From: a virus
Reading direction: 5' to 3' (one strand)
Length of the DNA stretch: 44,926 nucleotides
Virus record (IMG/VR): IMGVR_UViG_3300034069_000811
Location: 1 to 44,926 of that record
The notes under the pieces are model-generated. The model searched no databases, was not told the origin of the DNA, and saw only the letters and a program-made list of their open reading frames with translations. This document shows, one piece after another, positions 3,813 to 16,188 of this stretch; the first letter of the stretch is position 1; every line of letters begins with the position of its first letter. The position numbers and the translations under genes are program-made.

Positions 3813-4073
3813 TTAGGCGATGCGCAGCGTGGACAGGCGAGGCGAAAACGTCGATCCGTCTGGCTTATTGCGAACGCAACGTATGCGGTGCACCGAGGGG
3901 CGCGCTCCATCGAAGGTCGACCAGTCGCTATTGGACGCCATCAGGTGGACAGGCTGCGTGAGGCCCAACACCGTCACCGAAATGAGATCACCATTGTTCT
4001 TCATGTGGTTGAAGACCTTGCCGACCATGCGGTCGATGCTGCGGTATGCCTTGCGACGTTGTTGCGCGTTCAT
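3813..4073 (-). CDS. Hypothetical protein (86 aa), cargo gene of 85-bp promoter cassette copy B
   Basis: ORF from the track. Its ATG and SD lie inside the repeated cassette. No family recognised. Confidence 0.7.
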   Translation of the reverse strand: MNAQQRRKAYRSIDRMVGKVFNHMKNNGDLISVTVLGLTQPVHLMASNSDWSTFDGARPSVHRIRCVRNKPDGSTFSPRLSTLRIA

Positions 4074-4155
4074 CTTCGTTCTCCAGTTCTCGCCGCGCCC
4101 AATGCGCCGCCCATGTAAGAACTATAGCACAACCAAAAGATTGTGCAAGTAGTTT
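4071..4155 (-). promoter_or_regulatory. 85-bp promoter/5'UTR/SD/ATG cassette, copy B (84/85 identical to 727..811)
   Basis: Plus-strand coordinates: -35 at 4143-4148, -10 at 4121-4126, palindrome GCACAA 4127-4132 / TTGTGC 4141-4146. The single mismatch is a4102 versus g758. Confidence 0.7.
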
Positions 4156-7090: not shown

Positions 7091-7231
7091 TCAAGCTCCT
7101 TTAGCAGGCGGGCTGTAGACGTTTGCCGACGGCACGAACGGCTTGGGGCACCGGTCGGTGGCCGGGGTGTAGCTGGCCGAGTTGCCGTATGGTTTCGGTA
7201 CCGGGGCGGGCTGCGGCTTATTGGTTTCCAT
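7091..7231 (-). CDS. Pro-rich small protein, 46 aa (METNKPQPAPVPKPYGNSASYTPATDRCPKPFVPSANVYSPPAKGA), not in the ORF track
   Basis: A GGGAGAG SD lies 6 nt upstream of the ATG. Third positions are GC-rich. It fills the 7090-7217 gap and overlaps the ParB-like 3' end by 14 nt. Confidence 0.5.
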   Translation of the reverse strand: METNKPQPAPVPKPYGNSASYTPATDRCPKPFVPSANVYSPPAKGA

Positions 7232-8012
7232 TCTGCTCTCCCATGAACGCGTTAAAGTCTTCGATCATCTTGGCATCGCCGCAACGTTTCACGTGAAACC
7301 GAAGACGCCCCAGCAAGCCCATCGCCGTCTGCAACTTGCTCGGGCGCTGCGTGCTCGCCGTCTTGGCCGTCACCTTGTCCTTGCCGGCCGCCTTCGCAGC
7401 TTGCAGGTCGGCGGCCAGCACCTTGCCGGCGTCCGCGCCGTGCTTCTTGATCGTCTTGCGCACCACATCCGCCGACACCTGGTCGCGCTCCAGCATGCGC
7501 TTGACGTCCGGCGCGGCATCGGCTAGGGCGATGCAGTCTCGCACGTGCTGCACCGACTTGCCAGGGCGCGCAGCGATCTCGGCCGGCGTCCAGCCCAAGG
7601 CAATGAGCCGCGCGTACTGCACGCCCAGCTGGAGCGGCGTCATCGGCAGACCCTGCTGGCTGGTGATCATCAGCATGATGCGGTCGGGTTCCTCGCCGCG
7701 GAAGTGGCGCGCGTCCATGCGGCGCAGCTCCAGGCCTTCTTCGATGGCGAGCAGGGCGGATGCGTGGCGGTGGTGGCCGTCGACGATGAACACCTCGCCG
7801 TCCTCGACGCTCACCTCGATCGGTGGGAACGTGGCGCCATTCTTCCAGCCGTCGGCCATCTGGCGGACATGCGCGGCGTTGATGGGCCGGCCGTTGAACC
7901 CGGACTTGACCTTGAGGACGCGAGGGTCCACCTGGAAGCTGGTGGCCTTGCTCACCGCGTCAAGCTCCTTGTCTTCGGCCATCGTCTTTAGCGATACGTG
8001 TTTCTTTTCCAT
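7218..8012 (-). CDS. ParB-like nuclease-domain protein with C-terminal HTH-like region
   Basis: 264 aa. It has the FIVDGHHR motif typical of the ParB/Srx N-terminal domain. Confidence 0.85.
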   Translation of the reverse strand: MEKKHVSLKTMAEDKELDAVSKATSFQVDPRVLKVKSGFNGRPINAAHVRQMADGWKNGATFPPIEVSVEDGEVFIVDGHHRHASALLAIEEGLELRRMDARHFRGEEPDRIMLMITSQQGLPMTPLQLGVQYARLIALGWTPAEIAARPGKSVQHVRDCIALADAAPDVKRMLERDQVSADVVRKTIKKHGADAGKVLAADLQAAKAAGKDKVTAKTASTQRPSKLQTAMGLLGRLRFHVKRCGDAKMIEDFNAFMGEQNGNQ

Positions 8013-12847: not shown

Positions 12848-12946
12848 GGTGCAATAGATTAGAGGATCTATTCTAAAAGTGATTTGATATTGGTCAATTG
12901 TTCGGTGGTATTCTTGAACGGCCAACCTAGAATTTTAACCAATAGT

Positions 12947-13025
12947 CCCAGGAGGGAACCGTCGCCCGGTATTGGTCCGGTAGGTTTGGCGACTTAGACG
13001 GTTCCCTCCTGGGGCTTTCCTTTTT
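12947..13025 (+). other. Long hairpin (17-bp perfect stem, 33-nt loop) followed by a U-rich tract; terminator-like or structured element
   Basis: 12947-12963 CCCAGGAGGGAACCGTC pairs perfectly with 12997-13013 GACGGTTCCCTCCTGGG. GCTTTCCTTTTT follows. Confidence 0.6.
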
Positions 13026-13037
13026 GAAAGCCAAACC

Positions 13038-13274: not shown

Positions 13275-13573
13275 TTTATGAGATCCTCCGAGGCGACGCC
13301 ATCGCCCAACTGCGCACTATTCCCGACAACACGTTCGACAGCATCGTCACCGACCCGCCCTACGAACTCGGCTTCATGGGTAAGGCCTGGGACGCCTCGG
13401 GCATCGCCAACAGCGTCGAGCTGTGGGCCGAGGCGCTGCGCGTGCTCAAGCCGGGCGGCCACCTGCTGGCGTTCAGCGGCTCGCGCACCTATCACCGTAT
13501 GGCCGTGGCCATCGAGCACGCCGACATCGCCGAGGGCCGGGCCATCCATGAGCTGACCGGGGGAATGCTGTGA
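13271..13573 (+). CDS. N-terminal fragment of a beta-class N6A/N4C DNA methyltransferase (truncated, probably non-functional)
   Basis: 100 aa carrying IVTDPPY (motif IV) and RVLKPGG. The frame stops before any FxGxG AdoMet-binding motif I, and the next gene starts at its stop codon. Confidence 0.7.
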   Translation: MIYEILRGDAIAQLRTIPDNTFDSIVTDPPYELGFMGKAWDASGIANSVELWAEALRVLKPGGHLLAFSGSRTYHRMAVAIEHADIAEGRAIHELTGGML

Positions 13574-15687
13574 TGGCCGCCACCGACGCCCGCAAAGTTC
13601 CTGTACAACTAAAGCCCGAAAACATCCCGGCATCCCTGCGCGCTGAACGACGATGGGTAGCTTGGCTTCCGAAATGGGCGGATGGTAAGTTCGGCAAGAA
13701 ACCCGGCCGCATCGATCGCCCGGGAATCGGCCTTACAAACTGGGCCAACGAGGGCTGGGTCGACTTTGACACCGCGGTGGCCGCCTGGCGTGCGAACCCG
13801 TCTATCTTCGGCGGCGTGGGCTACGTGATGACCGGCTCGTCCTGCGTCACCGGGGTCGACCTGGACGGCTGCATCGACGCTGCAGGCAATATAGCGCCGT
13901 GGGCCGCCGAGATCGTGCAGGGCCTGAACACCTACACCGAGGTGTCGCCGTCGGGCACGGGCATCCGCGCTTTCGTCGAAGGGCACCTGGAGGACTGGCA
14001 AACGCCGCGCGACGGCGAGGTCAAGATCGAGGTGTACGGCGGTTCGGCGGGGCGGTTCCTTACGGTGACTGGTGCGCACTTGGCCTCGTCCCCCGCCGAG
14101 GTCCGGCCTGCGCAATCTTCTGTCCTGGCCGACATGCGGGCGCGCTATAAAATGGCGCCGAAAGCGAAGGCCGAGGTAGAAGATTTGCATCTGCCCGACA
14201 TCATCCCTGAATGCCTGTTGCGCGATGTGTCTGAACTGAATCTTCCGGCGCACGCGCGCAATTTTTTATCGGACGGTCCAACCAGCACGGATCGCTCAAG
14301 CCAGTTGTTCGCCACGGCGCTAGCGCTGATTCAAGCTGGTGAGTCGCGCGAGCAGGTATATAGTCGGCTGGCCAACAACGAGCACGCGCTCAGCTTGGCC
14401 GAGGATCATTGGAAAGGCCATGCGGAGAAAGCATTACGCTACCTGTGGAAGCACAGCGCGCAAAAGGGCGAAGAGCGGGCCAAGCAAATAGGCCAGCAGC
14501 GTTTCGACGAGTTCGATGATCTCGAACCCGCTGCGGCGAGGGCCGAACAGGCCGCCCGGTCAGCGCCACAAGCCGTTGATTCTGCTGATGATTTTGACGA
14601 TCTAGACGCTTCCGAGCAGCGCCAAGTGGCCGCCGATAATCGGCACGTCGATCTGGCTCCTGTAAAAAGACACAGGTTCGACGTCGAGACTGTTGACCAG
14701 TTCCTACAGCACACGCCGCCTAAATGGATCGTCAAGAACGTCTTGCCTCGGGCCGGCCTGGCGGTGATCTACGGCGCGAGCAGTAGCGGCAAGACGTTCT
14801 TTACCCTGGATCTGGTCAGTGCGGTAGCGCGCGGCCAGGACTGGCGCGGGGCCAAGGTCAACAAGGGACGGGTGCTGTACGTGGTCGCCGAGGGTGCGGG
14901 CGGCTTTCGCAACAGGCTTCAAGCGTATTGCGATTTCCATGGCGTGGATCCGGGCCAGTTTGAGATTAGCCTGTTGCGTCAGGCCCCGAACCTGTTGACC
15001 AAGGACGATATTCGAGAGTTTCTGGAGAAGGTGGTACCGCTCGGCGGCTTCGACATCATCGTGATCGACACCTATGCGCGAGCCATGGCCGGCGGCAACG
15101 AGAACGACGCCAAGGACGTCGGCCAGGCGGTGGCGCACTGTGACGTCATCCACCGCAAGACGGGCGCTATGGTCGTACTCGTGCACCACAGCGGCAAGGA
15201 CGCGACGAAGGGCGCTCGAGGCTCGGGGGCGCTGCGGGCGGCCGCGGATCTTGAAATCGAGGTGGTGCAGACACGCGAGTACAGGGCGGCCACCGTCACA
15301 AAGCAGAAGGATGGCGCGGACGGGGCCGAATATCAGTTCAAACTGGCCGAGGTCGCGATTGGCGAGGATGAGGACGGCGAGACGATCACCTCCTGCGTGG
15401 TCGAGCATAAAGAGGGGTTGGCGCGGCCGAGTGTTCTGGGGCGAACTCTAAACCCGCTGCAGCGGATGGTGATGGACACCCTGCGTTCGCTGCTTGACCT
15501 GAGCGACGCGCCCACCTACTCCGAGGACCTGCGCACCGCGGTTTTGGCCAGGGTGCCGCGCAATCCGGACTCCAAACGGGACAACCGGCCGAGGGATATC
15601 AAGACCGCGATTGGTGCTTTGATCGAGGGCGGCGAGATCATCGAAGGTGAAAAGTCCGCTTTGGAACTTGCAAATAATGACGGGTAA
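13570..15687 (+). CDS. AEP-type primase-polymerase fused to a RepA/DnaB-like (AAA_25-type) ATPase
   Basis: 705 aa. Motifs: GVDLDGC and EVSPSGTGIRAF (AEP-like), Walker A GASSSGKT, VIVIDTY (Walker B-like). The start is GTG 13570 or ATG 13573. Confidence 0.85.
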   Translation: MMAATDARKVPVQLKPENIPASLRAERRWVAWLPKWADGKFGKKPGRIDRPGIGLTNWANEGWVDFDTAVAAWRANPSIFGGVGYVMTGSSCVTGVDLDGCIDAAGNIAPWAAEIVQGLNTYTEVSPSGTGIRAFVEGHLEDWQTPRDGEVKIEVYGGSAGRFLTVTGAHLASSPAEVRPAQSSVLADMRARYKMAPKAKAEVEDLHLPDIIPECLLRDVSELNLPAHARNFLSDGPTSTDRSSQLFATALALIQAGESREQVYSRLANNEHALSLAEDHWKGHAEKALRYLWKHSAQKGEERAKQIGQQRFDEFDDLEPAAARAEQAARSAPQAVDSADDFDDLDASEQRQVAADNRHVDLAPVKRHRFDVETVDQFLQHTPPKWIVKNVLPRAGLAVIYGASSSGKTFFTLDLVSAVARGQDWRGAKVNKGRVLYVVAEGAGGFRNRLQAYCDFHGVDPGQFEISLLRQAPNLLTKDDIREFLEKVVPLGGFDIIVIDTYARAMAGGNENDAKDVGQAVAHCDVIHRKTGAMVVLVHHSGKDATKGARGSGALRAAADLEIEVVQTREYRAATVTKQKDGADGAEYQFKLAEVAIGEDEDGETITSCVVEHKEGLARPSVLGRTLNPLQRMVMDTLRSLLDLSDAPTYSEDLRTAVLARVPRNPDSKRDNRPRDIKTAIGALIEGGEIIEGEKSALELANNDG

Positions 15688-15701
15688 GCAGTAATTTGCA
15701 T

Positions 15702-15830
15702 TGCTTCATTTGCTTCATCCTGCTTCATTTGCTTCATTTGAAGCAGGACCAAGACCTTCTTCTGCTTCATTTGCTTCACACTGTCTATAGACAGTGAAGC
15801 AATGAAGCAGTGGAAGGTGGCCTTGAAGCA
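15702..15830. repeat. Iteron-like array: 10 copies of the heptamer TGCTTCA (6 direct, 4 inverted) around an 18-bp perfect palindrome
   Basis: Direct copies start at 15702, 15711, 15721, 15730, 15763 and 15772. Inverted TGAAGCA copies start at 15739, 15795, 15803 and 15824. Palindrome CACTGTCTATAGACAGTG lies at 15779-15796. Confidence 0.85.
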
Positions 15831-15864
15831 AGATCTAGTAATTTTTTACAGACAGAGGTGGCAA

Positions 15865-16188
15865 ATGGCCTGGAGCAAAGAAAGTCGGCAAAGTCGTGGT
15901 TACGGACGCGAATGGGAAAAAGTTCGCAAGTTCGTAATGGAGCGCGACAAAGGCCTATGTCAGGTGTGCAAGCGGGAAGGTCGGGTGGGCATGGCGCAGG
16001 CGGTCGACCACATCGTGCCGAAAGCCGAGGCGAAGCGGCTCAGGTGGAGCCAGACCAAGATGGACCATCCATCTAATCTCCAAGCCATCTGCCAACCGCA
16101 CCACGATCAGAAATCGGCGGAAGAAACCGGCCGCAGCTACAACCCGAAAGTGGAGATCGGCCTGGACGGATGGCCGGTGGAAAAGTAG
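15865..16188 (+). CDS. HNH endonuclease of the terminase-associated (HK97 gp74-like) type
   Basis: RGYGREWEKVR, CQVC, VDHIVP and NLQAICQPHHDQK are present. ATG 15865 has a GAGGTGG SD. The track start at 15802 lies inside the heptamer array. Confidence 0.85.
   Translation: MAWSKESRQSRGYGREWEKVRKFVMERDKGLCQVCKREGRVGMAQAVDHIVPKAEAKRLRWSQTKMDHPSNLQAICQPHHDQKSAEETGRSYNPKVEIGLDGWPVEK

Follow-up and report, generated by a model that had tools for sequence, protein, structure and literature searches.

A probable iteron-type replication origin behind the primase-helicase gene of an uncultured 45-kb phage, with heptamers that covary with a predicted winged helix

Which protein reads a dense array of short repeats lying between two genes of an uncultured phage, and for what function? 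The array occupies a non-coding gap (positions 15688-15864) between a primase-helicase gene and an HNH endonuclease gene in the virus record IMGVR_UViG_3300034069_000811, whose 44,926 bp were analysed as a whole and are called the window here. This IMG/VR record is complete, and because the 141 bp repeated at its termini are an assembly overlap, its ends are arbitrary. The first-pass annotation of this DNA recognised the architecture of a protein-binding array and left three candidates, an iteron-type replication origin, a packaging site read by TerS or HNH, and a centromere-like site for a ParB-like protein, among which the sequence alone could not choose. Both the architecture and this reserve stand, and comparative data now separate the three candidates. 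These data lead us to conclude that the gap is quite probably an iteron-type replication origin recognised by the primase-helicase encoded immediately upstream. The features of the gap are as follows.

15688-15864, no strand assigned: whole non-coding gap between the primase-helicase stop and the HNH start, proposed replication origin
15702-15736, plus strand: four direct iterons TGCTTCA (starts 15702, 15711, 15721 and 15730), period 9-10 bp
15739-15745, minus strand: single inverted iteron (TGAAGCA on the plus strand), 2 nt past the fourth direct copy
15754-15818, no strand assigned: 65-nt imperfect dyad over the 2+2 convergent iterons and the palindrome, with 18-nt arms that are 89% complementary
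15763-15778, plus strand: two direct iterons aimed at the palindrome (starts 15763 and 15772), a pair kept here in nearly all relatives
15779-15796, no strand assigned: palindrome CACTGTCTATAGACAGTG, TATA at its centre, proposed site of melting or of a hairpin
15795-15809, minus strand: two inverted iterons (TGAAGCA) aimed back at the palindrome (starts 15795 and 15803), kept in relatives
15824-15830, minus strand: outlying inverted iteron TGAAGCA, an exact copy
15837-15852, plus strand: AT-rich right flank AGTAATTTTTTACAGA, about 25-30% GC

Ten exact copies of the heptamer (TGCTTCA, or TGAAGCA when inverted) had been reported within 129 bp (15702-15830), and every coordinate was confirmed. 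The whole window holds 18 exact heptamers, compared to 5.6 +/- 2.6 in shuffled sequences (0/100 shuffles reached 18), and 10 of these 18 are concentrated in the 129 bp. With one mismatch allowed, 11 heptamers per 200 nt are counted at the array versus a window mean of 0.57. A second heptamer cluster, similar to the crr site of phage P4 (see below), was not observed in the complete 44.9-kb record, where the next densest 200-nt stretch carries 5 one-mismatch copies versus 11. Tandem Repeats Finder describes the direct copies as a repeat of period 9 with 4.3 copies. The fourth direct and the first inverted iteron together form a dyad, TGCTTCA-TT-TGAAGCA, and this '>>>><' pattern is also present in relatives.

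The gap is AT-richer than the genome (42% GC versus 59.5% for the window) and non-coding, as previously described. The primase-helicase stops at 15687 and HNH starts at ATG 15865, behind a GAGGTGG ribosome site. HNH homologues of relatives begin with M-A/P-W-S-K-E-S-R at the same place as ATG 15865, and the in-frame ATG at 15802 is therefore an artefact of the repeat. The array is thus wholly intergenic, its first iteron lying 14 nt past the primase-helicase stop codon. An Rfam search of the gap returned no credible family, only far-sub-threshold matches to hairpins (miRNA precursors) on both strands, which reflect the dyad.

To place the array in a wider context, we used the comparison with related genomes that the first-pass annotation had proposed. 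It covered 91 assessable loci obtained by protein-guided scans and look-ups, with primase-helicases 32-72% identical to that of the window. An array adjacent to the primase-helicase gene was found in 82 of them: the densest heptamer cluster (4-11 exact copies) is located 0-520 nt past the stop codon of this gene, and elsewhere in the related loci a maximum of 3-5 heptamers per 260 nt was observed. Several loci classified as 'weak' contain degenerate arrays with the same layout. This layout is constant and consists of three to four direct copies, one or two inverted copies, a spacer, two direct copies, a small palindrome and two inverted copies ('>>>(>)< >> palindrome <<'). The heptamer itself is lineage-specific (TGAAGCA, TGTTGCA, TGGAACA, TGTGGGA, CGTGTAC, TGATCCA, TGGAGCA and others), with the general form T-G-n-n-n-C-A. 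About ten relatives have their array 220-520 nt past the stop (L039, L042, L043, L046, L059, L063, L065, L069, L080, L084 and L088); in these, an insert sits between the gene and the array.

A nucleotide search of isolated phages gave no relatives of the window. The closest isolates by protein are the Caulobacter phages GB2A/RW (40% identity), in which the gene is followed by a 63-nt gap with no array, and a scan of genome contigs gave a single distant relative. We also noticed a 41-kb contig labelled Acer saccharum, the sugar maple (P0008/L095; GCA_030979865.1, contig JAUUCP010000125.1), carrying a close relative of the primase-helicase, an array of the TGTGGGA type and HNH. It is probably a phage or bacterial contamination of the plant assembly.

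The protein whose gene is so regularly followed by the array is the candidate for its reader. The following coding features are relevant here.

13570-15687, plus strand: primase-helicase, 705 aa, proposed initiator, with an N-terminal primase-polymerase of the archaeo-eukaryotic primase (AEP) type, a central RepA-like AAA_25 helicase and a C-terminal winged helix
15454-15669, plus strand: part coding for the predicted winged-helix (WH) domain, residues about 629-700 (AlphaFold model, Foldseek)
15583-15585, plus strand: AAC codon of N672, the putative specificity residue (covariation with iteron base 4)
15586-15627, plus strand: helix 3 of the predicted WH domain, residues 673-686 (AlphaFold model)

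The identities given earlier to the two flanking genes, AEP primase-helicase and HNH, are borne out by profile matches. In profile comparisons with the PDB, the AEP domain matches SaPI5 PriRep5 (7OLA, E 1e-30) and the NrS-1 primase (E about 5e-21), and the helicase domain matches RSF1010 RepA (1G8Y) as well as Pfam AAA_25 (E 9e-41). The Pfam and PDB profile searches gave no match of this helicase to superfamily 3 (SF3) or MCM. The whole protein matches phrog DNA primase/helicase families. Beyond the helicase, a tail of about 90 residues remains, for which an AlphaFold model based on a 74-row alignment has the topology H-S-H-H-S-S with a pLDDT of about 90. All top PDB matches of this model in Foldseek are winged-helix domains, including those of MCM and ORC, with weak E-values (0.017 and above). 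The C-terminal domain is therefore predicted to be a winged helix. It showed no sequence homology to the WH domain of PriRep5 or of any other solved initiator, and these WH domains cannot be aligned.

This domain and the iterons vary together among relatives. Three relatives with C-terminal domains 47-65% identical to that of the window (L009, L010 and L011) keep TGCTTCA at the same positions, with changed spacers and palindrome. Conversely, in another group (L004 and its group) the helicase part is up to 86% identical to that of the window, the C-terminus is unalignable and the iteron is GTACACG. At least 26 changes of iteron type are needed on a tree built from the helicase core.

A nearly invariant D-x-R motif marks the start of helix 3 (D671-N672-R673 in the window), and its central residue follows the fourth base of the heptamer. 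For this comparison, each heptamer was written in the direction that the copies right of the palindrome have, and 46 distinct helix/iteron combinations were available, the register of 11 heptamer types having been set by hand before base 4 was scored. Base 4 was A in all 22 combinations with N, Q or Y at position 672, G in all 10 with R, and T in all 14 with T, S, M, L or K. As a phylogenetic control, independent pairs were taken from the helicase-core tree, from which the tail was excluded; agreement was again complete for R with G (5/5), for N or Q with A (7/7, p 0.016) and for T, S, M or L with T (4/4). Moreover, the protein alone served to predict the iteron class of seven further relatives whose DNA was retrieved only afterwards, and all seven predictions were correct. 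When every column of the domain was compared with every iteron position by mutual information, in an unbiased scan, N672/base 4 ranked first (z 19.5), with R675/base 4, N672/base 3 and D676/base 3 within the top five. N672, R675 and D676 occupy positions i, i+3 and i+4 and share one face of helix 3, in its first turn.

With moderate confidence we propose, from this covariation, that the N-cap residue of helix 3 would set base 4 (Asn/Gln for A, Arg for G, Thr/Ser/Met for T), that residues i+3 and i+4 would tune bases 3-4, and that the WH domain and the array would form a swappable module, giving dozens of orthogonal initiator/origin pairs on one scaffold. If the rule is true, point mutations might suffice to re-target such pairs. 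It could also explain how co-infecting relatives avoid cross-activation of each other's origins.

The centre of the array shows a different kind of conservation. The 18-bp palindrome CACTGTCTATAGACAGTG reported at 15779-15796 was verified as perfect (9+9). Folded as single-stranded DNA, the surrounding dyad (15754-15818) reaches -23.6 kcal/mol (z = -9.6), and none of 200 shuffles folded as well; such a sequence might form a cruciform. A palindrome whose arms measure at least 5 bp was found at the same position in 75% of 51 distinct relatives, compared to 8% of length-matched control segments. Its arms vary among relatives yet stay complementary (CCCCTTTAGGGG, CTGTCTATAGACAG, CCTCTTTAGAGG, TACCTTTAGGTA, CCCTATATATAGGG and others). 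The property conserved at this position is symmetry and not sequence.

The outer flanks of the array are AT-rich. The octamer AGTAATTT of the right flank is also found at 15690-15697 on the left flank, and the right flank (15837-15852) is a possible unwinding element or other site. Many relatives carry an AT-rich motif, TGCAAA-w(3-6)-TTAC, on the flanks of their arrays and just before the HNH ribosome site, for which unwinding element, promoter and second protein site are all possible roles. The window has only degenerate versions of TGCAAA-w-TTAC, at 15690-15700 and 15837-15852 (AGTAATTT on both flanks), and GCAAA-N(2-6)-TTAC is not a recurrent genome-wide motif in the window.

A working model can be drawn from these observations. 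The WH domains of a primase-helicase oligomer would bind the TGAAGCA heptamers, helix 3 reading their variable centre, with N672, R675 and D676 facing bases 3-4. The 9-10 bp spacing would allow neighbouring subunits of one ring to bind side by side, and the two direct and two inverted copies around the palindrome would bring two assemblies face to face. The TATA-centred palindrome in its 65-nt dyad, together with the AT-rich flanks, would then melt or extrude; the helicase would load itself and the primase domain would lay the first primers for the family-A DNA polymerase of the phage. We infer physical binding, origin activity, the loading of two rings and palindrome melting from the comparative data, which support both the protein-binding array and the origin candidate of the first-pass annotation.

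Several observations nevertheless weigh against an origin at this place, or against its recognition through helix 3. A few relatives (L018/L020, L092 and L007) have no array after the gene. GC skew has no extremum at the array and turns near 10 kb, where the direction of transcription changes, and another AT-rich island, at 12848-13037, could be an alternative origin. The centre of the array lacks a long AT-rich unwinding region and has the 18-bp palindrome instead. Concerning recognition, the hand-set register enters into the base 4 counts, and only 20-230 nt separate the array from the WH-coding DNA, a linkage whose co-inheritance inflates any association between protein and DNA. Finally, the contact geometry proposed for helix 3 may be wrong by analogy with PriRep5, where the wing and not the helix reads the bases in the cryo-electron microscopy (cryo-EM) structure.

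Among other explanations, the one that survives best is an operator array, in which binding of the heptamers, by the WH domain of the primase-helicase or by some other regulator, would serve chiefly to control the transcription that passes from the early replication genes to HNH and the late genes, either as a roadblock or as a switch of timing. The array is indeed located exactly at the early/late boundary, initiators that bind beside their own gene often regulate too, and relatives carry the conserved AT-rich motif before the HNH ribosome site. In addition, a promoter and terminator scan detected neither a sigma-70-like promoter nor an intrinsic terminator within the gap, and HNH is therefore probably transcribed by read-through from upstream. 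However, in more than 50 relatives the array is followed by a gene other than HNH, differing between groups, and the layout is unchanged. The convergent 2+2 arrangement around a dyad prone to melting, and the connection with a helicase, are as in origins (PMC9371898), and a regulatory role could coexist with origin function instead of replacing it. We consider a purely regulatory array unlikely.

A second explanation, which we rate as very unlikely, is that the heptamers are sites for a different phage or host DNA-binding protein and that their covariation with the WH domain reflects tight linkage only. Since the array adjoins the WH-coding region, the two would recombine together as a single block, and linkage alone can give a strong association. 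Against this, the association is uneven over the domain, with its maximum at three residues that share a face of helix 3; the pairings are chemically sensible (Arg with G, Asn/Gln with A) and recur across different iteron families, and the array has no constant link to any other gene.

The packaging site proposed earlier (cosB- or pac-like, read by TerS and/or HNH) draws on the gene located to the right of the array:

15865-16188, plus strand: HNH endonuclease of the HK97-gp74, terminase-associated type (PF01844, phrog_144)

Endonucleases of this type work with terminase at cos sites, and some TerS binding sites contain repeat arrays. Against this, HNH homologues within 3 kb are limited to fewer than 25 of the 91 loci, and over 50 array-carrying loci lack one. 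The identity of HNH and TerS is independent of the iteron type: the HNH of a relative with TGTGGGA iterons (L096) is 74% identical to that of the window, versus 64% for a relative with TGAAGCA (L009), and TerS identity is 77-79% in relatives that carry TGAAGAA as in those that carry TGTGGGA. The probable genome ends moreover lie elsewhere. Three 'linear' relatives assembled independently from separate samples (L106, L107 and L104) share a terS-side end, CCTYYTTT(C)TCAA..CTAA..ACACAACTTGC, 37-40 nt upstream of the terS start, and their opposite ends all read ...(A/C)AGGAC; the tails of L004, L014 and L021 were examined alongside. These conserved contig ends, located 1.3-4.1 kb from the respective arrays, probably represent true cos ends. 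The end motif was not found in the window, whose array is 3.8 kb from terS. A role in packaging thus appears highly improbable, and HNH is a neighbour of the proposed origin and no part of it.

The centromere-like partition site for the ParB-like protein (7218-8012, minus strand) is the least credible candidate and finds no support: clustered short repeats in both orientations do resemble some plasmid and prophage centromeres, and the window encodes a protein with a weak ParB-HTH match, but this Pfam HTH_ParB match is sub-threshold (E 1.5e-4), no ParA was seen, four of the five array-carrying relatives of 93-100% completeness lack the gene, and it is with the WH domain of the primase-helicase that the heptamer covaries. 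The ParB-like homologue (52% identity) present in only one of these five near-complete relatives indicates that it is an accessory gene in the group.

Taken together, the position of the array and its covariation with helix 3 therefore favour a replication origin over the packaging and ParB readings.

Examination of the surrounding genes completes the description of the locus. To the right of HNH, a collagen-like gene is followed by terS and terL at 19.7-21.8 kb. The leftward arm encodes, besides the ParB-like protein, the family-A DNA polymerase, an SNF2 protein, an Enc34-type ssDNA-binding protein and a DUF2800/PD-(D/E)XK nuclease. An 85-bp direct repeat (99% identity) at 727-811 and 4071-4155 lies at the 3' ends of the genes for the SNF2 protein and the DNA polymerase. 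Inside the first HNH codons (M-A-W-S-K), a one-mismatch heptamer, TGGAGCA, occurs at 15870-15876. It is probably a coincidence, these codons being conserved in HNH homologues regardless of the iteron type.

These results provide a probable origin and a named initiator for an uncultured 45-kb phage and for roughly 80 related metagenomic phages. A literature search found no paper describing the origin of this phage family. The kind of element is known; what this analysis adds is a comparison on a large scale and a residue-to-base rule. The latter is a hypothesis on the diversification of origin specificity that mutagenesis can address, and it may offer a source of orthogonal replicons. The design in which a self-loading primase-helicase acts on an adjacent iteron origin, as in the Staphylococcus aureus pathogenicity islands (SaPIs), P4 and pRN1, would be extended beyond SF3 and MCM helicases to a helicase of the RepA-like (RecA-fold) type that shares its chain with an AEP primase.

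How close is this element to known origins? SaPI Rep origins consist of 6-12 iterons immediately after rep, with at least two per side in opposite orientation, a C-terminal WH reader and a self-loading helicase (PMC9371898). Similarly, the array of the window directly follows an initiator-helicase gene, has at least two opposed iterons per side (15763/15772 direct, 15795/15803 inverted) and is associated with a predicted C-terminal WH domain whose iteron specificity is suggested by covariation. The SaPI helicases are of the SF3 or MCM-like AAA+ types, whereas that of the window has a RecA fold of the RepA-like AAA_25 family. The SaPI centre is AT-rich and about 80-100 bp long; here an 18-bp palindrome in a 65-nt dyad takes its place. 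Finally, SaPIs are satellites, in contrast to a 45-kb phage with its own polymerase.

Within this group, SaPI5 deserves a separate comparison. Its iterons, TGCAACC, are 9 bp apart, and four C-terminal domains bind three direct and one inverted copy; in the cryo-EM structure of PriRep5 with DNA it is the wing, not the helix, that reads bases (bioRxiv 10.64898/2026.10.17.759575). The primase domain of PriRep5 is homologous to that of the window, and the 9-bp spacing and the order of three to four direct copies followed by one inverted are shared. In contrast to reading by the wing, covariation in the window family points to helix 3, and the two WH domains are unalignable. One large group of relatives (L027-L051) has the iteron TGCAACA with 2-nt spacers, nearly identical to SaPI5 TGCAACC with AA spacers (bioRxiv 10.64898/2026.10.17.759575). 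This resemblance could result from convergence or from very old common descent.

In satellite phage P4, the alpha protein combines a Toprim/DnaG-type primase, an SF3 helicase and a C-terminal WH, and two separate cis sites, ori and crr, are required. As in P4, a single polypeptide would here unite primase, helicase and a C-terminal WH for short iterons in both orientations. The window differs by its AEP primase and AAA_25 helicase, and by a single array instead of an ori and crr pair. The IncQ plasmid RSF1010 distributes its functions over three proteins, the RepA helicase, the RepB' primase and the RepC initiator, and has 20-bp iterons and separate ssi priming sites. The window shares with it a helicase of the same AAA_25 family and an iteron-based origin, but its three activities are apparently fused in one chain and its iterons are 7 bp long. 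Unlike lambda-type origins, in which the iterons are inside the initiator gene, the array is intergenic.

ORF904 of the archaeal plasmid pRN1 carries an AEP prim-pol, a helicase and a C-terminal WH, with the origin directly after its stop codon; the Bordetella phage BIP-1 was discussed in this context (PMC4234260). The stem-loop of this origin, conserved in structure and not in sequence, is required for replication (PMC4234260). A structure-conserved dyad and palindrome is likewise found right after the prim-pol/helicase/WH gene of the window. The pRN1 origin has no iterons, its stem-loop is about 100 nt long and its helicase is of the SF3 type, whereas the dyad of the window is embedded in iterons. 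By analogy with these systems, the element described here would work like a SaPI, P4 or pRN1 origin, but it stands outside those families.

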